Under the pieces are notes generated by a model. It ran no database searches. It saw nothing but the letters and a program-made list of their open reading frames with translations, and had not been told where the DNA came from. DNA of 64,000 nucleotides from Treponemataceae bacterium (GTDB lineage: Bacteria > Spirochaetota > Spirochaetia > Treponematales > Rectinemataceae), in the NCBI GenBank assembly GCA_963678065.2, contig CAXXVZ010000003.1, positions 1,856,001-1,920,000 of the forward strand, read 5' to 3'. The translations under genes were made by a program, and so were the position numbers. The first letter of the stretch is position 1; every line of letters starts with the position of its first letter. Below, piece by piece: positions 36,661 through 56,989 of the stretch.

Positions 36661-36733
36661 GCCGAGATAGCTCATTTGGCAGAGCGGCGCACTCGTAATG
36701 CGCAGGTGTCGGGTTCGATTCCCGATCTCGGCT
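36661..36733 (+). tRNA. tRNA-Thr(CGT); integration site
   Basis: GCCGAGA/TCTCGGC acceptor stem, GCGCA-CTCGTAA-TGCGC anticodon arm, GGTTCGATTCC T-arm; CCA not encoded; upstream TTGATT..TATAGT promoter. Confidence 0.95.
36692..36733 (+). repeat. attL core (42 bp)
   Basis: CTCGTAATGCGCAGGTGTCGGGTTCGATTCCCGATCTCGGCT, identical to 46217-46258. Confidence 0.95.
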
Positions 36734-36802
36734 AACGTAATCAATTACGAGATAACGAAATACGCGGCTACCTGAAATCAGGCGCACGCGTTCCATCTCA
36801 CA

Positions 36803-36828
36803 CTATGAGACACTTCTATGAGATAGAA
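36803..36828 (+). repeat. Putative integrase arm-type sites (left)
   Basis: CTATGAGA at 36803 and CTATGAGATAGAA at 36816; the same 13-mer occurs twice near attR. Confidence 0.7.
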
Positions 36829-36842
36829 GTGAAAGGGACGCC

Positions 36843-38186
36843 ATGCGCACAGAAACGGCACAGTATTCCATTCATCGCAGAGGTGGTTTTTTCTACGTCC
36901 AATTCAAGAATCCAGAAACCCGCGAGTGGTCGACGCCGAAGTCTACTGGTACAAGTGACAGAAACACAGCTTTGCTTATCATCGCCGAATGGATGCGCGA
37001 TGGAGTACCTGTAGAAAAGACCGACACCCGCCGCAATCTTGCCGACATCTTCACTTCCGAATCTGCAATCGAGGCTGCACGCAAAGCACCACTGACGCCC
37101 GAGGAAGCTGCCCGGATCGTAGGCATCTTGCGGGATCGGGGGCTTGTCCAGGTTTCCGCAGTGCAAGTAGGACCAGGCTCCATCGATTTCACTTCATTCC
37201 TGGCTGATTTCTGGGATTATGATACATCTACATACGTCAAGGACCGGCTTTCACATGGTCAATCCATCGGGCGCCGCCACTGCAATGATATGGCATCCCG
37301 CGTCTCCGTTCACTGGAAACCTGTCTTTCAAGGCCGGAGCCTTGCGAGTATCACGAAAAAGGACATCCGTGATTTTTCGGTCATGATCGCCGGGAAGGGA
37401 CTTGCCACCGCAACGGTCAACAAAATCCTTATTACAGGAACATGTGCCTTGACCTGGGCGAAAGAAAACGACCTCATCCTCTCCGATCCTGGGGAAGGAC
37501 TTCGCAAGTTCTCCGGGGCAGGCAGACCCCGAGGCATCCTCGAAATGGACGAAGTTGCCGAGCTATTCAAGCGTGAATACTGGACTGACGATCGAACCTA
37601 TACCGCTAACATCGCCGCCGCGTTTACAGGAATGCGTGCAGGCGAACTTCTCGGGCTTAGAGTGCAAGACCTCAAGACTGACCGAATTGTCGTCACAAAC
37701 GCATGGGGAGGCGTGGATCATCTCAAGGATACGAAGAATCACGGCATCCGGCAGATCCCGTTGCCGCCCGCACTCCGCCGCGCACTTCTAGATCTTGCCG
37801 CGACCAATCCACATGGACCCGCGGGATACATTTTCTACGGAGCATTACCGGACAAACCAATGGACGAAAAGCCATTCCTCGATGATTTCAAGGCTGCATT
37901 CATCGCCATGCGCGTGAAGGGAAATGACGATCCGCAAGCCTGCGAGAAGGCCGAAGCCGAATTGAAAACACGAAACCTTCTCTTCCACAGCTGGCGACAC
38001 TTCTACAGCTCCCGCATGGCTGACAGCATCGACCTCAGGAAGCTATCAAATGCGACCGGACACAAAACACTGGAAACACTCGCTCAGTATGCGAGCCATG
38101 CGAAGAAGGATGACTTCGCCGAAATAGGAAAAGCTGTCGCAGCCCTCTTTGCGCCAGTCGTAGTCAGTACGCAAGCCGCAGGCTGA
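36843..38186 (+). CDS. Tyrosine recombinase / integrase
   Basis: TGMRAGELLGL (R), HSWRH (HxxR), GH...Y; adjacent to attL. Confidence 0.95.
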   Translation: MRTETAQYSIHRRGGFFYVQFKNPETREWSTPKSTGTSDRNTALLIIAEWMRDGVPVEKTDTRRNLADIFTSESAIEAARKAPLTPEEAARIVGILRDRGLVQVSAVQVGPGSIDFTSFLADFWDYDTSTYVKDRLSHGQSIGRRHCNDMASRVSVHWKPVFQGRSLASITKKDIRDFSVMIAGKGLATATVNKILITGTCALTWAKENDLILSDPGEGLRKFSGAGRPRGILEMDEVAELFKREYWTDDRTYTANIAAAFTGMRAGELLGLRVQDLKTDRIVVTNAWGGVDHLKDTKNHGIRQIPLPPALRRALLDLAATNPHGPAGYIFYGALPDKPMDEKPFLDDFKAAFIAMRVKGNDDPQACEKAEAELKTRNLLFHSWRHFYSSRMADSIDLRKLSNATGHKTLETLAQYASHAKKDDFAEIGKAVAALFAPVVVSTQAAG

Positions 38187-38199
38187 GGCAGACACCAGG

Positions 38200-38592
38200 A
38201 TGAACACACTCGAAATCATCCACGACAGGCTCAGTGTCGCACTTGATCGAGCCCGCATGATCCGTGCCGATTCGGTGGGCGAGCGGGAAGCCACATTTTC
38301 TGACGTGCGGGCTGATGGACTCCGGGAAGCTATCGAGCTGATTGCCGATCCCCGCAATCATATGGACAGCTTTAGAACGCACAGGCTCACGATCGACTTG
38401 TTGCTGACATTCAACACCATACTTGAGGGGCTTGAAAAAATCCCTGAACTGAGACCCGAAAAGACCGCAGAAGTCCGGGAACTCATTAAAGGACTTATAG
38501 AGGGAATGGCTGAATTGGTACCACGGGGGCACATGGTGTCCTTAAAATCATACACAGGAGAGAATCGACATGACACAGAAGGCGATGGATGA
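38200..38592 (+). CDS. Hypothetical helical protein of the element
   Basis: ORF with AGGA RBS directly after int; no family recognised. Confidence 0.55.
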   Translation: MNTLEIIHDRLSVALDRARMIRADSVGEREATFSDVRADGLREAIELIADPRNHMDSFRTHRLTIDLLLTFNTILEGLEKIPELRPEKTAEVRELIKGLIEGMAELVPRGHMVSLKSYTGENRHDTEGDG

Positions 38593-38869
38593 AATGGTTT
38601 ATGAACTGACTTTCCTTTCGGACACAGTGTACGGCTACGGGAGCATGATTCTTGAGGATCGCCGTGAACTTGCAGCTTTGTCTTTGCATACGGTATCGGA
38701 ACGCCTGGACGCTCTTGTTTCCATGTTGTCGAATGAGGACATTCCCCTTGAACTTCCTGCCGACCTTGGGGATGCAATCGAAAAGATGGCGAAGAGCGCA
38801 GGAAGATCGTACAAGGAGCAGATCATCATTTTGCTCACCGAATATGTCGCCGAGCGAAAGTCTGCATGA
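38570..38869 (+). CDS. Protein with a C-terminal Arc/ribbon-helix-helix-like segment
   Basis: LELPADLGDAIEKMAKSAGRSYKEQIIILL; GGAG RBS. Confidence 0.55.
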   Translation: MTQKAMDEMVYELTFLSDTVYGYGSMILEDRRELAALSLHTVSERLDALVSMLSNEDIPLELPADLGDAIEKMAKSAGRSYKEQIIILLTEYVAERKSA

Positions 38870-38928
38870 TCCGCCTTCCGGGCCGCAAAGTGCCCCGGAC
38901 AAGCATACAGGTGTTGAGGTAAAGCATC

Positions 38929-39453
38929 TTGAAACGACTTGACTATATTACTGATGGATGGAATATTGATATTATCATGAAGCATGAGAGTCCGAAACCA
39001 GTTGCCGCGAGAATAGTAAAGTATCTTGGAATGCCGCCGTCGAAGATTGCGAAGAAGTCCCCGTATATCCCCCTTTCCACCGAATCCATTATGAAGGCCA
39101 TGCGAACAGACGAGAATGAAGGCACCTTCGTCGATGGGATGGTGATAGATATTTTGCGAAGGGACTTGGGACCTCAGCGACGATACGACACAGATGGACC
39201 CAGGTTCGGGTATGTTCTGAAGCGGTCAGATTTTTGGACGGAAATGGACAGCCGACACCTTAAAGAAGCAGAAGTCTCCCGGCTTTTAGGAAGAAAACCG
39301 CGCTCGATACATTTATGGAATGACCGGACGAAAAAACCTAATGACTCACTTAGAATTACTGAAGAGGAATGGGGAAAGATTATGACATTCTGGACTGGAC
39401 AAACACAAAAAGTCAGAAAAGAAGAGGACCGAGAGGATAGTATACGAAATTAA
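38929..39453 (+). CDS. Hypothetical protein, possibly with a C-terminal HTH
   Basis: GAGG RBS and TTG start; LKEAEVSRLLGRKPRSIHLW resembles an HTH. Confidence 0.45.
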   Translation: MKRLDYITDGWNIDIIMKHESPKPVAARIVKYLGMPPSKIAKKSPYIPLSTESIMKAMRTDENEGTFVDGMVIDILRRDLGPQRRYDTDGPRFGYVLKRSDFWTEMDSRHLKEAEVSRLLGRKPRSIHLWNDRTKKPNDSLRITEEEWGKIMTFWTGQTQKVRKEEDREDSIRN

Positions 39454-39652
39454 GCGCACTCTAGAAGGCGCTTAGGCATTTTATGCCCGCAGATGCGGGA
39501 ACGGTGACACTGGGACTATGGCAACCCGGAAGGGTTAGTGACAGACCTCCCAGAAGGACACGGATCAAACCGTCTGTGTCGGGTCGAAAGGCTCTCCGAA
39601 TGGTCCCCTCACTTGTATGAGTAGAGGGGAAAACCATTTTCGGGGGCCACAA

Positions 39653-39868
39653 ATGGCACCATTCACAATTTCTCGGCAGTTTTATTCAAAGAAAGACCTT
39701 ATCGAAATCACCGGACAATCGCTTAGCACTATCGACCGCGGACTGCGAAATGGGAAAATCCCTTTCGTGAAAATCCCTGGCGGTAAAAATGTCCTCATTC
39801 CCGCTTCATTCATCGAAGCCCTTGAGGTTCGGGCCAGAGCACTCCCGACCGAGGGGGCTGCCGTATGA
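39653..39868 (+). CDS. Excisionase/AlpA-like winged-HTH protein
   Basis: YSKKDLIEITGQSLSTIDRGLRNGKIPFVKI pattern; 71 aa. Confidence 0.75.
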   Translation: MAPFTISRQFYSKKDLIEITGQSLSTIDRGLRNGKIPFVKIPGGKNVLIPASFIEALEVRARALPTEGAAV

Positions 39869-40050
39869 CCGCCGCAGATCGCACTATCGTGCACAGGGAA
39901 CTTGATCGCGCTTTCGACTCCGGATTGCCCTTCTATGGCGACGTTCTTTTTAAGCTCCAGATTCAAGGCGGAAAACTCCATCGGATCGAAACAACGGTTT
40001 CCCGTGCCGTTCTCGCCGAAACATTACGGATCGAAGGCGGCACTAAATGA
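39865..40050 (+). CDS. Small hypothetical protein
   Basis: ATGA coupling to both neighbouring genes. Confidence 0.6.
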   Translation: MTAADRTIVHRELDRAFDSGLPFYGDVLFKLQIQGGKLHRIETTVSRAVLAETLRIEGGTK

Positions 40051-40283
40051 TGCCCGTCGGCAAAAAGCCCTGCCCGAGGCATACGGACAGGGCTTCATGC
40101 ATTGAATCGGAACTGGATTGCATTTCTATTTTCGACAAAATACAAGAATCTGTCAATCTCATACCCATGGCCTCTTCCAAGTTCAATGAATATGGCGACC
40201 TCTTGACAGGATGCCAGCCCCGCGGCGATGTCCGCGCCTTACATGCAGTTGACAACCGCATGACGGTGAGAGGCCACGAATGA
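40047..40283 (+). CDS. Small hypothetical protein
   Basis: ATGA coupling to both neighbouring genes. Confidence 0.5.
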   Translation: MMPVGKKPCPRHTDRASCIESELDCISIFDKIQESVNLIPMASSKFNEYGDLLTGCQPRGDVRALHAVDNRMTVRGHE

Positions 40284-40588
40284 AGGCCGCACAGATTGTC
40301 CGCGCAGCTCTCGAAGCCCCGCCCGGAATGCTCCTCGCTGTTGACGCAAACGGTCCCTTCACGATCCGGGAATCGCAATTCCATAACGGGCCGGACGTTG
40401 TGGCCTATCAACAGAATGAACTTGCGGACTTGATTCGAGCTTTTTTTGGCCCTGACATATTCGAATACCCTGAAGCCGACGAAGCTCTCAAAGAATTTTT
40501 TTTATCAGATAGCTCCGCGAGGATCGCTGAACGCCGCCGGCGAGGGATTTCGTGGGACCGGGTTCCTCGAACCGGAGGCCGTTCATGA
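40280..40588 (+). CDS. Hypothetical protein
   Basis: ATGA coupling to both neighbouring genes. Confidence 0.55.
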   Translation: MKAAQIVRAALEAPPGMLLAVDANGPFTIRESQFHNGPDVVAYQQNELADLIRAFFGPDIFEYPEADEALKEFFLSDSSARIAERRRRGISWDRVPRTGGRS

Positions 40589-41511
40589 CCACAGGGCCCG
40601 TTGCCCGCATTCCCCTGTCTATCCTCGAAGACGCCAGCCTTCTCAAAGCCGAGGCATGGACTTTCATCGCACTCTACAGCTTCGCCGATGATCGTGGAGA
40701 ATGTTGGCCATCTCTAGATCGGATCGCTTCACGTGCACACCTCACTCGGCGATGTGTCGTAGATTCCCTTCGGAATCTTGAAAGCAAAAAACTCATCGAG
40801 AGGACCAGACGTTTCGAAAGGAATTCACGGGAACCAACTTCAACTCGTTACCGTGTTTTATGTAGGGAATCAGGTTCCCTAGGTAGTGAATCCAGTTCCC
40901 TACAGGTAGGGAACACCATTCCCTATGTAGGGAATGGCATGCACCTAGGTAGGGAACCAGGTTCCCCCGAACTAATCAATGAACTAAAGAAAGACACTCT
41001 GTCTTCGCCGTTGTCCTCGAAATCGAAGAAGGCAGTGAAGGAAAAGCCGGAGGCTCTATCACCTGACCAACTTGCCGCCTACCACGCTGCGGAATCCCGA
41101 TTTCAGGATACTGCAAAGACCGAGGGAGTCACGTGGAATCATCCACGACAAGGGAAAGCGCTTCGGTCCCTTGTCGAAGCCTACACAGACCGCCTTGCCT
41201 CCCTGCCGGGAATCGTTGAAACATTCCTGACACTCCGGGGCGGGAAAGAAACATTCTGGACAAAGCAGCCGCCGACCGCCTCCGCACTTCTTGCCCTTCT
41301 CGACCGAGTAGAAACCGAGGCCGCAAAGCGTCGACCACCTGCCCCGGATCGGAAACCGCTCCCAACTTGCCCAGTCTGTAGATCGACGTACCCTGTCGGA
41401 TCGCAGATCTGCCCTCGATGTGGATTCTTCCTGGATGACGCTAAAGGTCCGCGCGCTGAAACAGCCATCGCCGCTCACCGCACCCGTATCACGGAGAGGG
41501 GCACGGCATGA
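40585..41511 (+). CDS. Phage-type replication initiator (N-terminal winged HTH, C-terminal Zn ribbon)
   Basis: CWPSLDRIASRAHLTRRCVVDSLRNLESKKLI HTH; internal iterons; CPVC..CPRC; directly upstream of dnaB. Confidence 0.8.
   Translation: MTTGPVARIPLSILEDASLLKAEAWTFIALYSFADDRGECWPSLDRIASRAHLTRRCVVDSLRNLESKKLIERTRRFERNSREPTSTRYRVLCRESGSLGSESSSLQVGNTIPYVGNGMHLGREPGSPELINELKKDTLSSPLSSKSKKAVKEKPEALSPDQLAAYHAAESRFQDTAKTEGVTWNHPRQGKALRSLVEAYTDRLASLPGIVETFLTLRGGKETFWTKQPPTASALLALLDRVETEAAKRRPPAPDRKPLPTCPVCRSTYPVGSQICPRCGFFLDDAKGPRAETAIAAHRTRITERGTA
40862..40968. repeat. Five palindromic iterons, putative replication origin
   Basis: GTAGGGAA-N5-TTCCCTA-like units starting at 40862, 40883, 40906, 40927 and 40949. 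Confidence 0.8.
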
Positions 41512-42836
41512 ACAGCCATGAAAGCGCTCTACTCGCCGCCATTCTCGATCGCCCCAGTCTCATTGACTCCCTCGAAATCACACCAGGGCTCTTCCAAGAC
41601 TCTGACGCCCGCGCCATCCTCTCCGCGGTCGAATCGTGCCGTAACAATCAGATTGCTTCGGACCTCATCGCCATAGGCGACGCTCTCGGTATTGCAGGGC
41701 GTTCCGAAGCCGTGCAGACAGCCGCAGGCCTATCAGGGACAGGAATGCCGGTCTCCGCTCCATACCATACCGAACAGCTCAGGGAAGCCGCACGGCGCCG
41801 AGGGCTCGAAGCCGTCCTACGTGACGGCATTTCTGCACTAGCCGATCTTTCTCGTCCGACACGCGAAGTCCTCGAATCCATCGAATCAGGCGCGCTTGAA
41901 GCATTTCGGCAAGCCCCTGAGACTGAGCCACGGAGAACGGCCGACCTCATTCCTGACTGGCTTCGCGCCGTAGAGGGCCGTAAGCGTGACCGTGAGGCTG
42001 GGAGGGTGGACGGAATTGGGACCGGAATCTCGGCGCTCGATGGCATTCTAGGGCCGATGCGCCCTGGATCGGTGAACATCATTGCCGGCCGACCAGGATC
42101 AGGGAAGACCGCACTTTCTCTCGGAATCGCCCTGCATGCCGCGGTTGATGAAGGGCTCCCTTCTGCCGTTTTTAGTCTTGAGATGACGAGGGCCGAACAG
42201 CTCGACCGGATCGCCGCTGCTCGGTCCCGGTTTACTCTTGGAAAAATCCGTGGCGGATACCTTCAAGACTATGACTGGACGGACCTCCTCGCTGTCGGGA
42301 ATCGTCTTGCTTCAGCACCTCTCGCCATCTTCGACGGCCCACATGGACTCGGAACGCTTCGGAGCCGGATTCGCCGCGAGACTGCACGAGGATGCAGACT
42401 GGTAATCGTGGACTATCTCGGCCTCCTTGACTTGGGTGTAGGAGGAAGAATCCCGCGGTGGGAGCGCATCGGCGAAGTATCCCGCGACCTCAAGCTTCTC
42501 GCCCTCAATCTTCGGATCGTGATCGTCCTCGCTGTCCAATTGAACCGGGAGGCCGAGGGGAAACCTCCGACCCTCGCCGACCTCCGTGACTCAGGGAGTA
42601 TCGAACAGGACGCGGACAGCGTTCTTCTCCTCCATGTGACAGGCGAAGGCGATCCGCGTCCAGTTCAAGCGAACATTGCGAAAAACAGACACGGGCCGAC
42701 CGGGAAAACCGAACTGTCATTCGATGGGCCACATGTCCGGTTCATTGACCCCGCCTCGCCGATACCAACCGACACCCTCGACCTCGAAACGCCAAACCAG
42801 CCAGGACAACACCCACATAGGGAGGCTAGACGATGA
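41508..42836 (+). CDS. dnaB: DnaB-family replicative helicase (element-encoded)
   Basis: GRPGSGKT, FSLEM, IVDYLGL, QLNR, LRDSGSIEQDAD, KNRHGPTG. Confidence 0.92.
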   Translation: MNSHESALLAAILDRPSLIDSLEITPGLFQDSDARAILSAVESCRNNQIASDLIAIGDALGIAGRSEAVQTAAGLSGTGMPVSAPYHTEQLREAARRRGLEAVLRDGISALADLSRPTREVLESIESGALEAFRQAPETEPRRTADLIPDWLRAVEGRKRDREAGRVDGIGTGISALDGILGPMRPGSVNIIAGRPGSGKTALSLGIALHAAVDEGLPSAVFSLEMTRAEQLDRIAAARSRFTLGKIRGGYLQDYDWTDLLAVGNRLASAPLAIFDGPHGLGTLRSRIRRETARGCRLVIVDYLGLLDLGVGGRIPRWERIGEVSRDLKLLALNLRIVIVLAVQLNREAEGKPPTLADLRDSGSIEQDADSVLLLHVTGEGDPRPVQANIAKNRHGPTGKTELSFDGPHVRFIDPASPIPTDTLDLETPNQPGQHPHREARR

Positions 42837-43270
42837 ATTGCGGTACTTTTGATACATGTTCAGCCCCACTTTGCCCTCTCGATCCTACCAGCCTGGAAAA
42901 TTCGGTATGGTTTCCGGGAGAGGCGATATGCACCCGACAGGGAACAGAGTTCGCCAAAAAACAGCGGAGGCTCATGAGAAAAGGAATCAAGCACGATACA
43001 TGCTTCACTTTTACAATGATTGAGAGGCTATGGTCCATTTCAGTCGGTACGAGCGGTATCAACCCCGAGTACGAGAAAGCGGAAGTTGAACCTACATGGA
43101 TGAAGAATCATCCGCCAAAGCCCAAAGTGTCAAATGAGATTACCAAACGCCGCAGACAGACCATGGCAAACTTGCTCCTATCGAAAAAGAAGGCGGGAAT
43201 TATCGAGGCTACAGCACCTACCACCCCTTCGGACGTACTTTCTGTGCCTGGACCCGTCGGAGGAGCCTGA
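42833..43270 (+). CDS. Cys-rich hypothetical protein
   Basis: N-terminal CGTFDTCSAPLCPLD..C; ATGA coupling to dnaB. Confidence 0.6.
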   Translation: MNCGTFDTCSAPLCPLDPTSLENSVWFPGEAICTRQGTEFAKKQRRLMRKGIKHDTCFTFTMIERLWSISVGTSGINPEYEKAEVEPTWMKNHPPKPKVSNEITKRRRQTMANLLLSKKKAGIIEATAPTTPSDVLSVPGPVGGA

Positions 43271-43375
43271 AAGCTATATCTCATCACAAAAGGGAGAGGC
43301 TGTCTGACGACTGCCTTGTCCCTCGATTTACTGCGAAGGAACAGTCGATGCTGTTAATGGCATGAAGGAGAGACC

Positions 43376-44017
43376 ATGAACGATTTAATAGACGATAATG
43401 AGCTTTTAGCGCAGCCGCTATCTCGGTCTGAACAGCACTTCGTGGCTGAATACTGCATCAATGGGTACAACGCTACAAAGGCATATCAGTCTGCCCACCC
43501 AAAAGCTTCGCCCGAGACAGCCCGGTCGAATGGATACAGGATGCTGACAAAAGCTCACATCGTGAGAGCCATTGATGACTTTTGTATTCGGTCGGTGGAT
43601 GGCAGGCAAGCGATTCTGAAGAAAAGGATAGTCGATATTCTGGAGGTCCAGGCGTTCTACAAGATTACCGACATAATGGACATAAAGACTGGCCGGATAA
43701 AGATGACCAATGAGGAACTTGAGGCCGCAGGACTCACCGCAGTGATTGAATCGGTCAACGAGAAGAATACCAAGGATGCCAAGAGCATCGAATACCGGTT
43801 CTCCGACAGACTTGCAGCCATAGATATGCTGTGCCGAATTGTCGGTCTCTATGATACCAAACTCACAAGGGGAGGGCTGGGAGAGTCCGAGAATGTTGTC
43901 GGTGTCATTCTTGGAGTCGGAAAGATTCCAATCGAGGAATGGAACGCACGGGGGAGAGCAAAATCAGACGAACTGGCGAGTCAAGTATTGGGGAAATCCG
44001 GACTCCTCAGACCGTAA
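43376..44017 (+). CDS. terS: Terminase small subunit
   Basis: FVAEYCINGYNATKAYQSA...ARSNGYRML HTH and DRLAAIDMLCRIVGLY, typical of pac-type TerS; AAGGAG RBS. Confidence 0.8.
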   Translation: MNDLIDDNELLAQPLSRSEQHFVAEYCINGYNATKAYQSAHPKASPETARSNGYRMLTKAHIVRAIDDFCIRSVDGRQAILKKRIVDILEVQAFYKITDIMDIKTGRIKMTNEELEAAGLTAVIESVNEKNTKDAKSIEYRFSDRLAAIDMLCRIVGLYDTKLTRGGLGESENVVGVILGVGKIPIEEWNARGRAKSDELASQVLGKSGLLRP

Positions 44018-44029
44018 AGAGGGACAGCC

Positions 44030-44227
44030 ATGAAAGACCACCGATCACTACAGCCGGGAGGACCAAGTCGAGCGGAAATACTGCGAATGCAGATCATCGA
44101 CGAACTTGCCAATACCCTACCGGTTGCCTTCCTGGTGATACCCGAGACCCGGCTTGACCGCCTTGAGGATAATCTTGACCGGATAATCGGTGCAGCGTTC
44201 CGCGCTAAGGGAACCGCACGCCAGTAA
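44030..44227 (+). CDS. Small hypothetical protein after terS
   Basis: GAGG RBS; followed by a terminator. Confidence 0.5.
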   Translation: MKDHRSLQPGGPSRAEILRMQIIDELANTLPVAFLVIPETRLDRLEDNLDRIIGAAFRAKGTARQ

Positions 44228-44247
44228 TAGCTATGCATGAGAGTACA

Positions 44248-44273
44248 AGCTCCGGATCGCTTCGGGGCTTTTT
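44248..44273 (+). terminator. Intrinsic terminator ending the terS unit
   Basis: AGCTCCGGA-TCGC-TTCGGGGCT followed by TTTT. Confidence 0.65.
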
Positions 44274-44554
44274 ATTATCATTCCGGATTTCATTAATAAC
44301 AGAATGCCGTGCGTTTTTTCCGTTTCACTCGGACGTGGTTTACTACCAAGAAGGGAACCGGCGCAATTTCGTCCCTGAATAAAAGCCCTCCCAATCGACG
44401 TATAACGGAAGTAAAACACACAGATCCATATCATATCGCATGCGCTCCGAATACAGACTAAAAACGAGTGATCACACTCTGGCTGCAAGTTGAATAATGC
44501 TCTGTTTTCCGGAACTGACCTGATGTATTGTTTACTCATGTGAGGATAGACCAC

Positions 44555-45601
44555 ATGAAACGAATCATTGTAATTCTCTTTGCTTTGTTCTGCACGTTGC
44601 CTTTGGTTGCGCAAGAATGGTTCTTCGACCTGTGCAAGACAGGAAAACCAGAACAAGTTATAGCCGCACTGAAGGCTGGCGAGAAGGTTGATGCCCGAGG
44701 TGGCTACGGCTGGACTCCACTCATGTATGCTGCTGAATCCAACACACATGAGGTGGTCGCCGCGCTTCTGAAGGCCGGCGCAAAGATAGATGATCGGTCA
44801 GTGACCGGCATGACTTCACTTATGTACGCTGCTATGAGCAACAAACCCGAGGTGATCACCGTTCTTCTACGAGCCGGTGCAAATGTGGATGACAGGAGCA
44901 ACAATGGCGGGACCACCCTCATGATGGCTGCCTCATCCAACCATAACCCCGATGTGATAGCGGCACTGCTAAAGGCTGGCGCGAGAGTAGATGACCGAGA
45001 CGATGGCGGCAGAACCTCTCTCGTGAGGGCTGTTTGGATGAATACTTCCGAGATGGTTATGGCGCTGGTAAAAGCCGGTGCAAAGCTTGACAACCGAGAT
45101 GATGACGGCATGACACCACTCAGGTGGGCTTTCACCCCGAACGCGAACCCTGAGAATCTCACTGTTCTTCTGAAGGCTGGCGCGAGGGTAGATGATCGGG
45201 ACGATGATGGCATGACTCCGCTCATGTGGGCTGTTGTGATAAGCAATAAACCCGAGGTGGTCGCGGCGCTTCTGAAAGCCGGTGCGAGTGTGAAAGATCG
45301 TGATGAAAATGGCTGGACTCCACTCATGTATGCTGCTGAATACAATCATAACCCCGAAGTGATTACTGCGCTGTTGAATGCTGGGGCGAATGTGGATGAC
45401 AGAAAAGAGGATGGCGTTACCCCTCTCATGATTGCTTCCGCCAATACGAAGAACCCCGACGTCATCACGACGCTCCTGAATGCTGGGGCCAATGGGAAGG
45501 CAAAGGACAAAGGAGGCAAGACAGCCTTTGATTGGGCGAGGGGCAATGAAAAGCTCAAAGGAACCGACGCATACTGGGCGCTGAACAATTCCCGATACTG
45601 A
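44555..45601 (+). CDS. Exported ankyrin-repeat protein (element cargo)
   Basis: Signal peptide MKRIIVILFALFCTLPLVA; about 9 GxTPLMxAA...LLKAGA repeats. Confidence 0.92.
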   Translation: MKRIIVILFALFCTLPLVAQEWFFDLCKTGKPEQVIAALKAGEKVDARGGYGWTPLMYAAESNTHEVVAALLKAGAKIDDRSVTGMTSLMYAAMSNKPEVITVLLRAGANVDDRSNNGGTTLMMAASSNHNPDVIAALLKAGARVDDRDDGGRTSLVRAVWMNTSEMVMALVKAGAKLDNRDDDGMTPLRWAFTPNANPENLTVLLKAGARVDDRDDDGMTPLMWAVVISNKPEVVAALLKAGASVKDRDENGWTPLMYAAEYNHNPEVITALLNAGANVDDRKEDGVTPLMIASANTKNPDVITTLLNAGANGKAKDKGGKTAFDWARGNEKLKGTDAYWALNNSRY

Positions 45602-46076
45602 GGCCCACGGCCTTTCTTGATAGTATCTACATATCGGCTCGCGCCTCCATTCAACGCGCTATAGGTTGCATGCTGAACGCAAGGCCGCGCGTATGAAAAA
45701 CGTCTGATTTACTGCGACGGAACTGCCACAACAATGAAAAGAATTGAGGTTCGAGTATGAAACGACAGACAGGAAGGCAATGTCCTTACATCATAAAAAA
45801 GAGTTATCCGACTCATATGTGCGGACGATGGAATGGCGCTGTCCTGACAGAATAGCCTTGTGTTTTTTCCGTTCCGCCCCGGACGTGGTTTACTACCAGG
45901 AAGGCAATCGCTGAGATTCCACCCTGTAATCTACAAGGCGGGTTTGCCCCATAGCGAAGTTATTCCGCCCCTATTTGGGCATTCTACGGGATACATGGCC
46001 GTCTTTGTCTGCCTGAATCAATCCTGAGGCGATAGCGCGAATCCATATAATACGTGGTTATACGACGCCGTTTTTA

Positions 46077-46102
46077 CTATGAGATAGAACTATGAGATAG
46101 AA
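46077..46102 (+). repeat. Putative integrase arm-type sites (right)
   Basis: Tandem CTATGAGATAGAA x2. Confidence 0.7.
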
Positions 46103-46216
46103 AGCAACACGATATAAACTTTCTTGACATAATACAGTATGCAATAATATTGACAGACATCGATTTAGGGTTTAGGTTAATACGTAACGACATAGTGTGA
46201 AATGTTAATTTTCAGT

Positions 46217-46258
46217 CTCGTAATGCGCAGGTGTCGGGTTCGATTCCCGATCTCGGCT
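46217..46258 (+). repeat. attR core (3' part of tRNA-Thr)
   Basis: Exact copy of 36692-36733. Confidence 0.95.
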
Positions 46259-46422
46259 GATTGGCAGAAGAATGGAATCCCGCAGGAAACACCGATTCGC
46301 GCCGACAACTAAGCCTTGCCGGCCAGCTTCTCTTTCCTTTCAACTTTTTCCAAGAAACGGTCCAGATCGACGATAGCCCGCAGGTGATCGATGGCGTCGC
46401 GCGAGGCTTCTGTCGCCTCGGC

Positions 46423-47355
46423 TCATCCGCAGATCGTGGATCTACCTCCATCGTCCGCCCCGCGCAACAGGGAAAAAAACGGCACAGTGTACCGGCGCGT
46501 GCGAATCATGTCGAAGAAAATTTCTACCACTTCAGGATCAAACTGTCTTCCGCTGCAGCGGCTGATTTCCGCCACTATGTCCGAAGGCAGCATGGCCTTG
46601 CGGTAAGGTCGGTTGTTTATCATCGCGTCGATGCTGTCGGCGAGAGCGAGGATCCTACTCAGGAAGGGAATCTCATTTCCCCGCAGGCCGGGGGGATATC
46701 CGGCGCCATCCCAGCGCTCGTGGTGGGCTACGACGAAGTCCGCGAGCTCCGAGATGCCGCAGATTGACTGTATCAGCTTGTACCCGATCGCCGGGTGACG
46801 CCTGACCTCCTCCCACTCCTTGGGGCCGAGCGAGGTTGGCTTGAATATAATCTCATCGCTGATGCCTAGCTTCCCGACATCGTGCAGTATGCCCAGAGCG
46901 TTGAGGATCAACAGATCCCTCTGGGGCAGCCCCATCATCTTGCCCAAGTCCACACAAGCTTCGCTCACGCGGAGGGAGTGCGAGAGAATCGCGGGGAAAC
47001 GGCCCTGCAGGGCCTTGGTATAGGCGTAGACCGAATACATGTCGTCGAGAACTTCGAGCGTACACTCTTTTATGTCGAGCAGGCTCACCACCTTTGTGCA
47101 ATAACCCAGGAGGGCCACATCGCCCAAAGGCCCCGAGCCCCCAGTGTTAGTCAGGGCCTCCATGATCGCGTTCATCTTGATGATATCGACCTCGCGCTTT
47201 ATCCGAGCGGCGAGCCTATCGACGCGGGCATCGGTGCCCTGTATCGTCTTCTTGGGCTGGCAAACCACGTCCTCGCTGTTCGCTCCGCCGGGTTGCTTTG
47301 CGTCAATACACATGGCAGCTTCCTTCTCGCAATACAAAAAATGCCGTCGCATCAT
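46423..47355 (-). CDS. HD-GYP domain phosphodiesterase
   Basis: HSLRV, LHDVGK, HHERWDGAGYP, RPYR, GRQFDP. Confidence 0.9.
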   Translation of the reverse strand: MMRRHFLYCEKEAAMCIDAKQPGGANSEDVVCQPKKTIQGTDARVDRLAARIKREVDIIKMNAIMEALTNTGGSGPLGDVALLGYCTKVVSLLDIKECTLEVLDDMYSVYAYTKALQGRFPAILSHSLRVSEACVDLGKMMGLPQRDLLILNALGILHDVGKLGISDEIIFKPTSLGPKEWEEVRRHPAIGYKLIQSICGISELADFVVAHHERWDGAGYPPGLRGNEIPFLSRILALADSIDAMINNRPYRKAMLPSDIVAEISRCSGRQFDPEVVEIFFDMIRTRRYTVPFFSLLRGADDGGRSTICG

Positions 47356-47358
47356 TCC

Positions 47359-50040
47359 TCACTGGCCGGCGCATCCGCCAGCGCCGGTTTCCGACGTATC
47401 GTCGAAAGGCCTATACTCGAGGTCGGCCCCATCGACATATCCTCCATTCTGGGGAATATTGACCACTCTCGTTATGTAGGCGACCTTCTCGTCTGCGCTC
47501 TTCTTTGTGATACGGACTGTGTAAGGGCCGACCTTCAGGGCGGAGAAAACATAGTACCCATCGTAAGCCGAGCGGACCGATCCGATCACCGCGCCGGAAC
47601 TGTCAAGCAGCTCGACGCGGGCGCCCGCCAACTCACGCCTCACGCCCCCCTCCACGGCCCATATCGTGCCGGAGACCTCCCCCGTGATCCAAACGGGGAA
47701 ATCCAGCCGCGCGGCCGTGCCCGGATGGAGCACGCAGCTCAGGCCCTTGTCGGCAGGGACGAGAAGAAGATCCTCGAGCGTCGTCTCGTCGACCTCCACG
47801 TTGAGCGGCAGATTTGCGGACAAACCGCGTAAAAACGCGTTGCCCTTCGCGTCCGTCAACGACTCGGCGCCGCTATCGTTCACGATAAATCCGACGTCCT
47901 TGAGAGCATCTTCACCTTTATCCCATTTTCTGTTGTAGTTCGCGTCGAGGTAGACGCGGGCCGCGATGGAGCCTTGCCCCGCTCCGCTCCGCGAATCCAC
48001 AGCGATGGCTCCGCTCTTCGAATCGAAGGCGATACTCGTCGAAATCGATAAACTTACCGAAAACGCGTTCCGTGTCGTCCAGGTTCCCGTGAGGCCTAGG
48101 CGCAAGGGGCTCACATCCCGGTAGAGCGAGATGGACGCGGAGAGAAGATCGGAGGAAAGCGAATACGTGGCTGCTCCGGAGACTTTAACCGACAAGAATG
48201 GGCCGGCTTCCGCCGAAAAGGATAGGCTCTCGATCGCCGCTTCGGGATAGATGTCGTAGCCGCAGGAGGCTTCCAAATCCACTTCCCCAATCCGCGCGTT
48301 GGCCGTCGTCGATCCATCTGCGTAAAGTACCTGCGATGAAGGCCCATAATAATGACGGGAAAGGTTTAGTTCATTTCGGAGACGGATGGCCCTATACGAG
48401 TTATAGTTTCGCAAGGCAAAAAGATCGTATCGGCAACCTTCCCTGTACAGCGTCGATATCCAGGAGGAAGAGAGGGAAGCATAGAATTTATCCATTTTCA
48501 AACTTAATCCGTCGACGCGCAGAACGCTCCGCGTTTGGTAGGGCGGATCGCTCGATGAGGCGTTCGCCTTTTCCCATTTATCGTCGTAATAGGTACCGCG
48601 CCATGAGAGCCCAAGGCCAAGGAGTTGGGTGCGCAAGCCGAGGTCGCCGGCGAACCCTGAATGGCGCGCATCGTAGGCTGCCGATACGTCGAACTGGAGG
48701 CGGCTGAAATATCCAGCCATTCCCGCTTGGACATGGAGGTTACGACCGTCGGGAAAGACACCAGAGAGCGCCGACGACGAGAACGTGAGGTATTTCGAAA
48801 GCCCGTAGGTTGTCTGGAGGGCGAACTGTCCCCCCTCTTCCTCGGCCGTGGCTGAAGCCCGGTAGGATAAGGTACCCGGCGGCGTCATGTTCGATCCCAC
48901 GTTGTAAATATGTTCCTCGGTCTTCTTCTGACCGAGAGGGCCATGGAACTCGAGTCTGAGCAAGTTGGTCCCGAATACGAGGGGGATATCGGCGAAGGTA
49001 TAGGTACCGCTCGCGTCCGCCTTCCTAAAGTCGAGATAGGAATCGTTCCGGTAGAGCTCCACGTCCCAACCTGAGAGAAGAGGCCCCGAAAGCGTCTGGA
49101 GATCGAAGTAGGAGGGGCTCGTGAGAGCATAGTTCCCGACCGAAGCGCCATAACCCGAAGCCGAGGCGCCCAAGAGGGAGGGAAGAACTGCCGATACCTT
49201 GCCTATGGAAAACTCCGTTCCGCCCAGGGAACCGAAAAGCTTGCCGTCGGGGTCCACTCTGCGGAGCACCCCATAAAGGCTGGTGGGAACGAAGTTCGAG
49301 CCGTCCAGCTTGCCCGCGACGGAGAGTGAGCCGCTCATCCACAGGAGGTCGCCCGTCAGGAGGGCGCTGTAGGTCGGTCCACTCAGGCTGACGCCATTGC
49401 CGCTGGATGAAGAATACAGCGAAGCCCCGACCGAAAAATCGAGGTTGAAGCCATCGAGAAAGCGGTAGGGGTTCGCCGCCCGAGGAAAATATGATCGTTC
49501 CTCGACACCATAGCGCGTGGTCTTGCCGCCCCGCTGCTCGCGCTCGAGACGGAGCTGGATAGGGAGTTTCGTCCGCGGCAGGAGGACGACGGCAGCGTCG
49601 TAGCGGTCGGCCTGAATGGGGATGCCGAACCATTCGGAGAGGAGGGAAACCTCAACATAGATGTCGTCGGGGTGGGCCACGATGCGCGCCTCATCGTAGA
49701 GGCCGCGCTCACCCGCAACCCGCACGCTCCGCGAAACCATGTCGAGGGAAAATGCATGCGCTTCGTCCCAGAGGTAGCCCGAGGCTGTTCCTCGCCCGGG
49801 ATCGACGTCGAGACCACACTCGATAAGGCGGCAGACCGTCCCTAGCGGAATAAAGAGCCCCCGCTCCGTCACATAGGTTTCCAACTCTTGGGAGAGCAAC
49901 TCGCGATCGACGTTTAGGGAGCAGAGAAGGAGTTCGTCCTCGTTGGGCGCGATGAGTGTAAAACCCAGTGCTTGGGCCCCGATGCGCGGAAGAGAGCAGA
50001 GAAGAACCAATGCATAAACGGCCACACACCATCGCCTCAT
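47359..50040 (-). CDS. Usher-like outer-membrane protein with C-terminal carboxypeptidase-regulatory-like Ig domains
   Basis: Signal peptide; GWDVELYRN..GTYTFADIPLVFGTN plug-like motif; beta-rich; YLDANYN..D.GE; downstream of chaperone and pilin genes. Confidence 0.65.
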   Translation of the reverse strand: MRRWCVAVYALVLLCSLPRIGAQALGFTLIAPNEDELLLCSLNVDRELLSQELETYVTERGLFIPLGTVCRLIECGLDVDPGRGTASGYLWDEAHAFSLDMVSRSVRVAGERGLYDEARIVAHPDDIYVEVSLLSEWFGIPIQADRYDAAVVLLPRTKLPIQLRLEREQRGGKTTRYGVEERSYFPRAANPYRFLDGFNLDFSVGASLYSSSSGNGVSLSGPTYSALLTGDLLWMSGSLSVAGKLDGSNFVPTSLYGVLRRVDPDGKLFGSLGGTEFSIGKVSAVLPSLLGASASGYGASVGNYALTSPSYFDLQTLSGPLLSGWDVELYRNDSYLDFRKADASGTYTFADIPLVFGTNLLRLEFHGPLGQKKTEEHIYNVGSNMTPPGTLSYRASATAEEEGGQFALQTTYGLSKYLTFSSSALSGVFPDGRNLHVQAGMAGYFSRLQFDVSAAYDARHSGFAGDLGLRTQLLGLGLSWRGTYYDDKWEKANASSSDPPYQTRSVLRVDGLSLKMDKFYASLSSSWISTLYREGCRYDLFALRNYNSYRAIRLRNELNLSRHYYGPSSQVLYADGSTTANARIGEVDLEASCGYDIYPEAAIESLSFSAEAGPFLSVKVSGAATYSLSSDLLSASISLYRDVSPLRLGLTGTWTTRNAFSVSLSISTSIAFDSKSGAIAVDSRSGAGQGSIAARVYLDANYNRKWDKGEDALKDVGFIVNDSGAESLTDAKGNAFLRGLSANLPLNVEVDETTLEDLLLVPADKGLSCVLHPGTAARLDFPVWITGEVSGTIWAVEGGVRRELAGARVELLDSSGAVIGSVRSAYDGYYVFSALKVGPYTVRITKKSADEKVAYITRVVNIPQNGGYVDGADLEYRPFDDTSETGAGGCAGQ

Positions 50041-50925
50041 GCTTTTTCAGCCTCATACACACTGTCTTACCCGACGCCCTCACTCAGGCATTAATTACCT
50101 ACTCATTCGAAACTCAAGTATTTTATCCATCAGATAAGTTCTACACATATTCTTGTTCTTTTATGGTATGGGAATTTCCGCGCTCGCAAGGACAGGAATG
50201 ACTTTCCCCTTAGCGTTGTAGGTATCCAGATAGCGAAGCCGAAGCGTCCCCCCATGAAAAGTATCAACAAGCTCGGGGGGCAGGCTTATCGGAAAGTTTA
50301 CAATTCTACGCTTGTTGGTCGCATATACAGTGAGCCCTTTCTTTTTTTCTAAAATAATGGGAACTTGTCCTGGCTGTATGTACTCGACCACCAAGTCTCC
50401 ATACAGCGACTGATTACCAGCGCGTTCAATCACAAAACTGAGTGTTCTGTTTTCCGGATTTAATCCAGGAGCCAATGTAATACCAACTATAGAAGCGGTC
50501 ACGGCAGTGGCCCCAGACCTGATGATAACGGGGACTGCTATGCCATATATGGGGGTTAATTTGATACGTAGTCCTTCTTCATCTTTAGAAGAAGCTGCGT
50601 CGCTCGCTGTGTCCGGTATAACGCTCACGACGAGATTCGAGCGGTACTCCCCATCAAGGAGGTCCGCAGGACGCAAAAACTGAAGCCTTACAATCTGCTG
50701 CATTTTGGCCCCAAGCGCAATCCTTTTAGGAGTTACCCGGAGAAATTGATCCGCAAAACAATCATCAGGCCTCGCAGAGTCTGCTCTTACCAGTTCACCC
50801 GTCTCCGACATTCTAAAGTTTACGAAACTGACTGAATATGTTTTTTGGCTCGTGCTAGGATTTATAATGATAAGCTCGGCAATACGACTGCGTCCTTCAA
50901 TCACTAGTCTAGTAGTCTGTAACAT

Positions 50926-51585
50926 CTAAATCTTTTCATCGATAATTGGATATAGACGTCTCAGTTTCGTTCTTGCGTCATGCGTTGTGAATTGCCAATC
51001 AACGCCGCGCTGATTTTTATTCCTGCTCACATACCAGCTCGCAAGTTCAGAATTAAGATCATCGAGACAATCGATTTTCCTTTTTGCCAAACACTGCCGA
51101 CCAAGCGCAGAGAGTTCAATTTCGGCAATATTCAGCCAACTTCCGTGCTTTGGTGTGTAGTGGATTTCAAGTCGCTGGGCCAGCTCGAACGCTTTCCGTG
51201 GCGGAAATGAGTCGTATAACGATGAAACACCATGGGTATTCAAGTTATCCATTACGAGAACAATCTTTTCTGCTGTTGGATATTCAACCATGAGGAGTTG
51301 TTCGATATAGTGTGCCCAATCAATCCTGGTCCGATGTTCTCGAGCATCAGTGTAGCGCCAGCCCCTCAATGGTTCGGTAAAGAGAAAAATACTACAGGTC
51401 CCTTTACGGACATATTCGGAATCTTGTCGCTCCGGTTTTCCCTTTCTCATAGCGATATGTTGCCGTCGATCAGCCAATAGCTGGATCGGCTTCTCATCCA
51501 TGCATACCACTGGACGATTGACGTTATAAGGCCTGCTATATACTTCCAGAACATCTTCCATTGCGGCAACGAAACGACCATTGGG
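50926..51585 (-). pseudogene. IS630 transposase DDE portion
   Basis: [26 protein letters not shown]. Confidence 0.88.
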
Positions 51586-51649
51586 TGGACCTACCCCAAA
51601 CCAGTGGAGCATGAGTTAAGCCTCTCCGAGAATAAGGAGAGGAGAGGGT

Positions 51650-51904
51650 ATGGAAGACAAAAGAAGGAAGTACGCGGCAGAGTTCAAGAAAGAAGCACTT
51701 GAACACTTGGAACGGTCAGGCAGGAGTGCCCGGAACGTGGCCAAAGACTTGGGAATTGATCCTGGACTATTGTGCCGGTGGCGACGGGAGAGTCAGGAAA
51801 TACACAAACAAGCATTTACCGGACAAGGGAATGCACGTGATCAGGAAATGACCAGGCTGAAAAAGGAAAATGATGAACTTCGTGAGGCGAATGCAATACT
51901 AAAA
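51650..51904 (+). pseudogene. IS3 orfA, cut at its frameshift site
   Basis: RRKYAAEFKKEA HTH...ANAILK continues as KAVAIFS after 53271. Confidence 0.85.
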
Positions 51905-51919
51905 GATGATATGTTTCCC

Positions 51920-52145
51920 CTGGCGGTACAACGATCGTGGTAGGCTGGGTTCGACGGAACCCGGGAGCCGGCGGCAGGCAGTACGCGCTTTGTGGGGTAT
52001 GACCCCGGCTAAAAGATTATGCCCAGGCCGGTCGTCGAAAATCAGGGTGCAGGACGATGCTGCGGCAACGCCACTGCGAATAGAAGAATGTAGTACCACG
52101 TTGTATCGCTCAAAGACTTCCGGCTCCGATCTTTTTCCCGGGAGG
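51920..52145 (+). ncRNA. Candidate IS110 bridge RNA
   Basis: About 245-nt non-coding left end with multiple stems, e.g. 51922-51942 pairs with 52094-52110. Confidence 0.55.
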
Positions 52146-52151
52146 CTGCGC

Positions 52152-53255
52152 ATGGGGAAGGAAACAGGGCGTTTTATTGGCATCGACCTTTCGAAGAGGA
52201 CCTACGAGGCGGTTGCCATCGATGGAAAGACCGAATCAATCCAGCGGTGGAATGGCAAGCTCGATATTCGAGGCCGCCGCAGCCTTGCGGAAAGGGTTCG
52301 ACCAGGCGACACCATCGCGATGGAAGCTGGTACCTCCTCATTCCAGATAGCGAAGGAACTCATGGAGCACCCCGACATACAGGTCCTTGTCCTGAACGCG
52401 GCTGACCTGGCGGTGATCCATAAGTCGCTCAAGAAGTCGGACCGTGAGGACGCGCTCAAGCTCGCGCGACTTGTGCAAAAGTTCAATGCTGACGAATTGC
52501 CGACAGTGCCAGTGCCCTCGGATGAAGAGATGGATCGTCGGGCACTTTCGTCCCATGAAGACCGCTTTCGCAGGGATAGAACTCGCCTTATAAACCGTCT
52601 TCATGCGGTGTTTCTCCGATGTGGCATTCCTGACCATACCAAGGCCCAGCTTAAGAAGGCAGCCACGAGGGAACGGCTCATCGAAACCGAACTTGCCGGC
52701 TTCAGCAAGACGGAGGCCATTAACCTCCATCACATGATCTCGGAATATGAGCAGATCCTCGCCGGGTTGGTCGAAGAGATCGGGGCTTCGGTGATGAAGG
52801 GCGGGGAGTCTGCGCACATCCTCATGTCGCTCCCTGGCTTTGGCATCAAGACGACGATGGCCATCCTGGCATACGCGGGAGACATGCGCCGCTTTAGCGG
52901 ACCAGCCCAGTTGGTCAACTATGTTGGGTTGTCGCCACGGCTTCACGAATCGGGAGAACTTGAACGCAAGGGCTCAATCACGAAGCGAGGCAATGCGCAT
53001 CTTCGGGGCCTGCTTGTCCAGAGCGCCTGGGGACTTATTCGCAGTAAATGCTCAAACCCGCTCAAGTCCCACTATGAGGCAATGATCTCCAGAGGGAAAG
53101 CGCCTTCTATCGCGGTCGTCGCGACCGCCCGGAAGCTGCTCGAGATGGTCTATATTTTGCTCACACGAGGGGAACGCTACCGGTACACGGATGACATGAT
53201 ATTTGCTCTCAAGCTCAAGAGGTCAGGATTGGCAATTCTCGGAGCCGGAGGTTGA
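52152..53255 (+). CDS. IS110 recombinase/transposase
   Basis: FIGIDLSK, AMEAG, KSDREDA, YVGLSPRLHESG, ITKRGNAHLR; GGAGG RBS. Confidence 0.92.
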   Translation: MGKETGRFIGIDLSKRTYEAVAIDGKTESIQRWNGKLDIRGRRSLAERVRPGDTIAMEAGTSSFQIAKELMEHPDIQVLVLNAADLAVIHKSLKKSDREDALKLARLVQKFNADELPTVPVPSDEEMDRRALSSHEDRFRRDRTRLINRLHAVFLRCGIPDHTKAQLKKAATRERLIETELAGFSKTEAINLHHMISEYEQILAGLVEEIGASVMKGGESAHILMSLPGFGIKTTMAILAYAGDMRRFSGPAQLVNYVGLSPRLHESGELERKGSITKRGNAHLRGLLVQSAWGLIRSKCSNPLKSHYEAMISRGKAPSIAVVATARKLLEMVYILLTRGERYRYTDDMIFALKLKRSGLAILGAGG

Positions 53256-53330
53256 CAGGAAACATAGAAAAAAAGCCGTCGCCATCTTCTCGGTACCCCG
53301 AAGGGGGAATTAGCCCGAGTCTACCAGTTC

Positions 53331-54176: not shown

Positions 54177-54235
54177 CTACCTGTCCATTCGGTCGGGGCA
54201 AGTCCAGTGCTGGGGAGGAATACACCAGCATTTTT

Positions 54236-54703
54236 TCAAGTGAGGTTTAAATTCGTTTTTTTTAGTGTCCTGTTGATCGTCATTGGAGAAATGGCATTGA
54301 TAATTCCAAGTTCAACACATTTGTCTGCCAGAAGACGGACCGTCCATCGCGTATACCCTTCGGGAGGATTGCTGCAACACAAGGCGATGATGTGCGCTTC
54401 AACGTCACCAGTGACTTTGGGCGCAATAGGCGGCGTTGTCCGTTTCTTTCTCTGAAGAAAAAAATCAAGCGATGGGCTATGCAGGAAAGCGTCCTTGATC
54501 ACTTGTATTGTTTGTCTGCTCACCTGGTACATATTCGCGATTTGCCCATCATGCAGAGGTGTCCGATTATTCGAAGTATCCAAGGCAAGAACGATCTGTG
54601 CCCGCCTGGTCAGGCGGACACTTTTGGAACCACTTGATAAATACAATAGGAATCTGTTCCGCTGTTCCGAGGATAAAACGATCTTTTTCTTGGTCTTTGC
54701 CAT
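54236..54703 (-). CDS. IS630 HTH ORF with an A8 -1 frameshift site
   Basis: PPEGYTRWTVRLLA; CTAAAAAAAACG; the -1 frame continues NEFKPHLKKCWCIPPQH. Confidence 0.85.
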   Translation of the reverse strand: MAKTKKKIVLSSEQRNRFLLYLSSGSKSVRLTRRAQIVLALDTSNNRTPLHDGQIANMYQVSRQTIQVIKDAFLHSPSLDFFLQRKKRTTPPIAPKVTGDVEAHIIALCCSNPPEGYTRWTVRLLADKCVELGIINAISPMTINRTLKKTNLNLT

Positions 54704-56955: not shown

Positions 56956-56989
56956 CAATCGTCTTCCTTTCCCCAGATCGGAAGTATAC

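Follow-up and report, generated by a model that had tools for sequence, protein, structure and literature searches.

In this study, we analysed a window of 64,000 nucleotides from the genome assembly of a Treponemataceae bacterium (GCA_963678065.2, contig CAXXVZ010000003.1, positions 1,856,001 to 1,920,000 of the forward strand; positions below are those of the window unless a contig is named) and describe in it a 9.5-kb integrated island that resembles the phage-inducible chromosomal islands (PICIs) carrying their own small terminase subunit (TerS). The island is bounded by a perfect direct repeat of 42 bp, the core of the attachment (att) sites, with attL at 36692..36733 and attR at 46217..46258, both on the + strand, 100% identical and spaced 9,525 bp apart. 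The repeat is the 3' part of a tRNA-Thr(cgt) gene at 36661..36733 (+; ARAGORN, Rfam RF00005), the integration target, and the genome of 5.27 Mb holds two copies of the core in total, both bounding the island. Arm-type repeat pairs lie within each end, at 36802..36828 (+) on the left and, by repeat analysis, at 46076..46102 (+) on the right, and the left pair likely provides arm sites for the integrase. The right pair takes the same position in two other islands of the same genome; a 13-mer common to the arms has four copies in the 5.27 Mb, three in the island arms and one in a sister island of the same genome. Fourteen open reading frames (ORFs), all on the + strand, cover 85% of the 9,525-bp unit. 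The perfect 42-bp att repeats at tRNA-Thr and the 9,525-bp unit of co-oriented genes had been claimed in the original prediction, made by reading the letters alone, and both were borne out; its claim of no visible gene decay stands for the frames, which are intact, but not for a stretch of 0.6 kb after the ankyrin gene near the right end, the sole sign of decay, which has no ORF >56 aa and repeats sequence from upstream of that gene. The GC content is 52.6% in the island, 63.5% in the left flank and 52.7% in the right flank, which is rich in insertion sequences (IS). The island is real and intact, and likely functional.

The first gene encodes a tyrosine integrase of 447 aa (36843..38186, +; PF00589, E 3e-14; phrog_1) containing the R-H-R-H-Y motifs, which have the catalytic role in such integrases. 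Behind it, orf2 (38200..38592, +; 130 aa) has an N-terminus like that of small ORFs following other island integrases (blastp against L174, E 4e-5, and L119, E 0.01), orf3 (38570..38869, +; 99 aa) shows a weak match to Arc/ribbon-helix-helix repressors (phrog_582, E 0.002; under the Pfam cut-off), and orf4 (38929..39453, +; 174 aa) is a possible helix-turn-helix (HTH) regulator, taken as a lead only, whose ESM Atlas neighbours score 0.88-0.90 and include several HTH clusters. An Xis-like HTH protein of 83 aa (39617..39868, +) is 40% identical to that of the sister island and was matched weakly by the excisionase and HTH_17 models (HTH_17, phrog_66, TIGR01764; E ~1e-3, below cut-off). This ORF had earlier been called xis/alpA-like; the excisionase half of the label keeps weak support, but no AlpA model reached E<=0.1. 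Then come three short coupled frames: orf6 (39865..40050, +; 61 aa), probably a member of a family of small proteins that follow xis in other islands and weakly scored (E 0.006-0.018) by a profile of that family built without it; orf7 (40047..40283, +; 78 aa), with no family match; and orf8 (40280..40588, +; 102 aa), weakly matching the ORF before rep in the sister island (E 0.011).

The replication module consists of two genes. The gene rep (40585..41511, +) encodes an O-like replication initiator of 308 aa with a C-terminal zinc ribbon (HTH_36, E 4e-8; phrog_270, phrog_391) and contains five palindromic iteron-like repeats, 21-23 bp apart (40859..40967, +), which are the likely origin of replication. 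A similar array lies in the rep gene of the sister island, and the O gene of lambda likewise has internal iterons. The second gene (41508..42836, +) encodes a DnaB-type helicase of 442 aa with intact motifs (PF03796, DnaB_C, E 9e-59), which is 46.5% identical to a phage DnaB, 38.6% to the host DnaB and 30% to that of the sister island. The module had been predicted to differ from those of known satellites, and the O-like initiator, internal iterons and DnaB agree with this; it is a variant and not a first case, because a DnaB helicase label is already listed for tycheposons in the accessible part of their description (bioRxiv 10.1101/2020.12.28.424599).

The packaging gene of the island is terS (43376..44017, +), encoding a TerS of the SPP1/SF6 type of 213 aa (PF03592, E 1.4e-14; phrog_51). 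It resembled SF6 TerS in sequence profile (E 1.4e-10) and predicted fold (E 2.6e-4), and shares both with the SPP1/SF6-type structures (PDB 3zqp, 3zqq, 4zc3, 2cmp); it differs from them in having no large subunit (TerL) beside it, in an identity of only 21-22% over the full-length structure and in a longer C-terminal tail. The protein is full length, with a DNA-binding domain, an oligomer region and a C-terminal Trp common to a phage TerS. This Trp is invariant across the nine aligned nearest TerS proteins, and we would guess that it takes part in TerL binding. Two small genes flank terS. The first, orf11 (42833..43270, +; 145 aa), has five invariant Cys in the alignment and is likely metal-binding; its model is of low confidence (pLDDT 63), and it gave no fold match and no Atlas match. 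Four of 68 family genomes have homologues, which, where their context is given, adjoin tRNA integrases; three of the islands measure 9.0-10.8 kb. The second, orf13 (44030..44227, +; 65 aa), has its sole homologue among the 68 family genomes in an 8.9-kb island (L130). Among the loci fetched, homologues of both genes were thus found only in tRNA-linked islands, which argues against a plain deletion remnant of a phage. Contigs of equal length had suggested that P0004, a homologue of TerS, and P0160, a homologue of orf11, might be linked, but locus L095 failed to show this. An intrinsic terminator-like hairpin at 44247..44280 (+; 10-pair stem and T-run) closes the backbone and is the strongest of nine such sites, the counts of promoter and terminator sites in the island being at chance level.

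Genes for a virion are absent, as had been stated earlier for capsid, portal, TerL and tail: a tblastn search of the island with 27 proteins taken from phages and islands related to it recovered no remnant of terL, portal, capsid, scaffold, terS or tape-measure genes (best E 0.23). Neither the gene set of a complete prophage, with terL, portal, capsid, tail and lysis functions inside the att sites, nor that of a capsid-forming PICI (cf-PICI; own capsid, portal, TerL and connectors) lies there. The accessible text of PMC10085698 defines PICIs by five core components and gives 9.5 kb as their median size, which the island equals, with 15 proteins as the median count, and that of PMC6092414 adds induction and packaging. 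Like PICIs in these sources, the island has an integrase (PF00589, with the 42-bp att sites and arm repeats), a weakly matched excision/regulatory HTH protein, a replication module, TerS (by PF03592, phrog_51, SF6 profile and fold) and an accessory gene after terS, and no structural or lysis genes were recovered by family scans and tblastn from its 9,525 bp and 14 ORFs, the sources giving about 10-15 kb. Candidates for genes exclusive to the family are orf11 and orf13, which among the loci fetched occur in islands only; the small post-xis protein occurs in two phage-like contigs as well. It differs from the PICIs of these sources in an O-like initiator with DnaB instead of a primase-replicase, in regulators that match none of AlpA, MerR and Stl and form no divergent pair, in the want of a capsid-morphogenesis gene (absent in many SaPIs, the islands of Staphylococcus aureus, too), and in a host within Spirochaetia. 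We therefore class it as PICI-like without counting it among the PICIs proper, since the integrase and TerS agree, the primase-replicase and capsid morphogenesis genes do not and the regulator matches are weak.

Other known elements come close in part. With the PICI-like tycheposons (bioRxiv 10.1101/2020.12.28.424599, as far as its accessible part goes) the island shares a tRNA-targeting tyrosine integrase, swappable replication modules, the DnaB label, a terS or capsid gene, and cargo and satellite forms on one backbone; the marine VEIMEs, mobile elements that integrate and are encapsidated in virions, are, in the available text of PMC9618062, likewise without capsid genes and package concatemers. 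Both belong to another phylum and have other hallmark genes, whereas those of the island are orf11 and the small post-xis protein. The EPIPs of Mycolicibacterium, in the excerpt of PMC12822802, are also small satellites with TerS, but have a serine integrase, connector and tape-measure genes, all absent here. Integrase, Xis and an iteron replicon without transfer genes also describe mobilisable islands like SGI1 (accessible part of PMC7433901), and the island might be integrative and depend for its transfer on a conjugative element acting in trans, by way of an oriT that escaped recognition. We regard this as very improbable: family scans found no relaxase among the 14 ORFs, the coupling protein of type IV secretion systems (PF02534) was not found in the genome (controls were positive in 5 of 14), and mobilisation leaves TerS unexplained.

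The integrase belongs to a family present at E<=1e-40 in 119 of the 401 genomes that were sampled from the order, and tRNA-Thr is the target of many of its islands. From 40 integrase loci, chosen by score and sequence extent, 14 proved to be att-bounded islands of 6.9-14.0 kb (three with cores of only 16-17 bp, and one with a complete copy of the tRNA as its boundary), five more measured 19.6-36.0 kb, and 21 were not bounded. A PHROGs scan covered 132 proteins of ~210 candidate ORFs in the 14 small islands and one further island of the own genome, short and opposite-strand ORFs being left out. A gene for a primase or helicase, or an O-like one, occurs in twelve of the 14, and five have lone virion or packaging genes: a scaffolding gene on the opposite strand in a 7.6-kb island (L115:818-8445), tape measures in L118 and L121, protease and capsid only in a 7.0-kb island (L125:8637-15594), and a Nu1-type TerS in L133. 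Larger members include one with terL and tape measure (L140) and two att-bounded elements of 36 kb (L144+L175, L149+L176), in which a complete head module (terS, terL, portal, protease, capsid) is joined by a D5-type primase and by cargo of the Dnd or type I restriction kind; the ORFs scanned gave no tail match, and the elements are cf-PICI-like. The post-xis family of 60-80 aa (L132:13801-14007 and ~30 other loci, including the two phage-like contigs; no Pfam or PHROG match) follows xis in the majority of these islands and is a candidate hallmark gene. PF03592 itself was found in 30 of the 401 genomes, and three of its loci are, like ours, tRNA islands of the order int-xis-replication-terS without TerL: one of 13.5 kb with a short rep and a tape-measure-like gene (L048), one of 12.1 kb with the same integrase family (L056) and one whose right end was not found (L066). 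Their TerS proteins were placed apart from that of the island in the TerS tree, and a lone TerS was apparently captured on more than one occasion.

The sister island at tRNA-Lys (L002/L003, G000:C3:2357079-2383364 in the own genome) is 26.2 kb long, laden with IS and of the same int-xis-rep-dnaB layout; its integrase, split in two, is 61% identical, its rep 55% and its DnaB 29-30%. It carries two Xis-like ORFs, a reverse-transcriptase-like ORF and a gene for a large Calx-beta/CHAP cargo protein, and no terS. A TerS was recognised neither in the sister island nor in 13 of the 14 small family islands, so that the family spreads in its absence, which favours another explanation, namely that the island is a self-replicating integrative element in which TerS acts as anti-phage packaging interference or as a DNA-binding regulator, and which moves through vesicles, by transformation or by transduction of the generalized or lateral type. 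In tycheposons, cargo forms and PICI-like forms share one backbone (accessible part of bioRxiv 10.1101/2020.12.28.424599), and a satellite inhibitor of TerL is known from PLE, a phage-inducible chromosomal island-like element (bioRxiv 10.1101/2024.04.22.590561, likewise in part). Against such a role stand the complete domain set of TerS, with the C-terminal Trp shared with phage TerS, and the repeated capture of different packaging genes in the family, which fits helper hijacking; we consider this explanation unlikely.

Taken together, the island is probably a PICI-like satellite of the TerS type, packaged by the TerL of a helper phage into helper heads. Its self-contained structure, TerS without TerL and the wider pool of small tRNA islands speak for this. 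Redirection of a helper TerL by TerS is a mechanism known from SaPIs, and the cycle might run as follows. A helper phage would lift repression, possibly via the Arc-like or HTH ORF; Int and Xis would excise a circle of 9,525 bp; and the O-like Rep would bind the iterons in its own gene and load the island DnaB. The island TerS would then bind a pac site of the island and recruit the TerL of a headful-packaging phage of ~43-47 kb, perhaps through the conserved C-terminal Trp motif. The helper size is assumed from the viral contigs found, which measure 43-47 kb, and since the island has no recognised capsid-size gene, its DNA would be packaged as concatemers of ~5 copies in full-size heads before re-integration at tRNA-Thr.

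Several observations weigh against the satellite reading. First, the nearest relatives of known context are borne by phages. In a TerS tree of 56 rows, in which long-branch joins are flagged for two rows of the set named next and for L056 with L066, the island TerS grouped with P0002 (71%) within a supported set of eight rows (95/87) that includes P0014; the last lies on a viral contig of 44.7 kb, with terS directly before or overlapping terL, and the island TerS is thus phage-derived. The contexts of the five closest proteins (P0002-P0006) give no terL status. Among 32 PF03592 places besides that of the island, 24 have terL within <=3.5 kb, two are at a contig edge and six are without terL, among the last L065, L073 and L069, where no integrase lies nearby and which looks like a remnant. 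The island DnaB is closest to a phage DnaB on a contig of the order rep-dnaB...terS-terL (L094/L110). A class-wide search with a profile of the closest TerS proteins gave three other matches, all followed by terL; scans of viral contigs with the integrase, DnaB and P0012 gave no match, and named phages matched TerS and the integrase only weakly. The original prediction had held that closest homologues in full prophages, with terL, portal and capsid after terS, would make the island a deletion remnant; this was found in part, the nearest TerS of known context lying before terL on a viral contig and DnaB being closest to that of a phage, but not for orf11 and orf13. In the available text of PMC9618062, the TerS of marine satellites is likewise closest to that of co-occurring phages.

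These relationships also support a temperate phage that lost its late operon after terS, kept its att sites and gained the ankyrin gene later. The order rep-dnaB-(ORFs)-terS mirrors the contigs that yielded the best DnaB match, the TerS clade includes phage TerS, terL follows in 24 of the 32 other places, and the integrase family occurs on the 36-kb elements whose head module is complete (L144, L149). On the other side, the island contains no late-gene fragment, orf11 and orf13 belong to the island pool, and a terminator closes the operon; it measures only 9.5 kb and has none of the recombination and anti-repressor genes of a prophage-like locus (L016). The sister island, with the same int-xis-rep module, likewise had no match to the structural queries. 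Finally, changes in int and in rep and dnaB are biased to synonymous sites. Between the two rep genes, dN was 0.30 and dS 1.27, the N-terminal part of the integrase being saturated at synonymous sites, and in a groundwater run (X6; depth ~3) with fragments of host flank, int, orf2, rep, dnaB, orf11 and terS, 14 of the 17 listed differences from the island were synonymous against 25-29% expected (p ~1e-6 to 1e-4). A deletion remnant is therefore improbable in our judgement.

Second among the points against a satellite, the set of parts deviates from that of known PICIs. No primase was matched among the 14 ORFs, the O-like initiator with DnaB being the analogous module; no AlpA, MerR or Stl-type regulator was matched among the ORFs, which offer no divergent pair and only the weak Xis/HTH_17 and Arc-like matches; and no capsid-morphogenesis or remodelling gene was matched among the 14, five small ORFs being without assignment. 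The rep family was found in one of the 401 genomes, the own one including its sister copy, and in one Logan protein, and since rep was found in no other of these genomes, the exact backbone does not appear as a conserved family. Third, contigs from sequencing runs show the integrated state. In five runs, which come from two studies, 67-99% of the sequence words of the island are present; no attP or attB joint was present in the Logan contigs of four of the runs, and depth in run X1 was flat (island 29.7, flanks 29-35). Because contigs drop rare forms, the absence of the joint shows only that the integrated state dominates. Odd joints in runs X4 and X5 look like chimeras and were not taken as evidence of excision, and no RNA run with the island was listed. 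In the groundwater run, terS alone had three of four differences synonymous (p ~0.08), the host flank four of nine, and the difference between island and host flank was not significant (p 0.08).

Fourth, the helper phage. The search for one that the original prediction had proposed recovered a single prophage in the genome, att-bounded at tRNA-Gly, 73 kb long (G000:C3:806176-879122; L005, L008, L009) and seemingly defective. Its open genes (terS-like, terL, portal, scaffold, capsid, adaptor and Dit) lie dispersed between IS and large ORFs for cargo, its TerS and that of the island belong to different families, and a tape measure of the PF10145 type was not found anywhere in the genome; IS-laden and broken up, this prophage is unlikely to be the working helper. 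The TerL that it encodes shares 61% identity with that of locus L096, the partner TerS of which is 36% identical to that of the island, so that TerL enzymes of a type that is plausibly compatible circulate in the lineage. The 141 CRISPR spacers of the genome gave no full-length match to any fetched locus.

Beyond the single island, the family may reflect an undescribed satellite radiation in Spirochaetia, a proposal that we put forward tentatively and with rather less confidence than the satellite reading itself. One backbone of integrase, xis and small protein would combine with swapped replication modules and with helper-hijacking parts captured repeatedly (lone TerS of two types, scaffold, capsid, TerS with TerL, tape measure, whole head modules), and the present island would be the first spirochaete satellite, relying on a replicon of the lambda-O type and on an SPP1-type TerS to fill helper heads, themselves unmodified, with concatemers. 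The accessible text of PMC10085698 places >99.9% of reported PICIs in Proteobacteria or Firmicutes and catalogues phage satellites almost solely in these phyla and Actinobacteria; spirochaetes go unmentioned in the available parts of this source, PMC6092414, PMC9618062 and bioRxiv 10.1101/2020.12.28.424599, and no spirochaete phage satellite was found described in the literature searched, most subscription papers lying outside it. Because TerS redirection is already known from SaPIs, the surprise would lie in host range and modular diversity. If the island is a working TerS-type satellite, this lifestyle would reach a phylum that branches deeply and is poor in genetic tools, and would be a candidate route of gene flow within it; a phage-type O/DnaB replicon could replace the primase module, and detectors based on primase would score such elements low.

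The cargo gene of the island (44555..45601, +) encodes an ankyrin-repeat protein of 348 aa (Pfam Ank) with an N-terminus that by eye is like a signal peptide, and the product is 55% identical to that of an ankyrin gene in the island of L132. A repeat of ~62 nt lies upstream of it (44299..44360, +) and matches, at 84% over 64 nt, a second copy at 45847..45910 (+) with no long gene behind it, possibly a lost cargo slot; another repeat pair surrounds the gene at 43325-43342 and 45706-45723. The two pairs suggest a cassette with a shared upstream element.

Further islands were noted in passing. Five tRNA islands of ~12-20 kb (L048, L054, L118, L121, L140) have a tape-measure-like gene, some with terS or terS and terL, while the ORFs scanned in them matched neither capsid nor portal; L054 has a long ORF without family match. 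Tape-measure genes do occur in satellites, since EPIPs carry them (excerpt of PMC12822802), a parallel to L048, L118 and L121. In two islands of 9-10 kb, related ORFs of 210 aa without family match follow the primase in the slot of terS (L119:13037-13666, L126:6238-6870). In the own genome, a 6.8-kb island at tRNA-Val (L010:1596-8457; G000:C3:2340595-2347455) encodes an integrase and a DUF3631 protein and, on the opposite strand, a major capsid protein as its lone virion component, and is a candidate second satellite, and a 42.5-kb island at tRNA-Met (G000:C5:1117930-1160485), the integrase of which was not matched by the query, carries the same arm-type repeats at its ends. The CRISPR locus has >130 repeats (G000:C3:1140492-1152857), and two of its spacers match the own genome, one fully (C5:1110621-1110654) and one at 97% (C3:1814423-1814456). 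To the right of attR, the low-GC, IS-rich part of the window (46258-64000) contains an ORF of 893 aa and small secreted-looking ORFs, which by eye only resemble a chaperone-usher pilus cluster.

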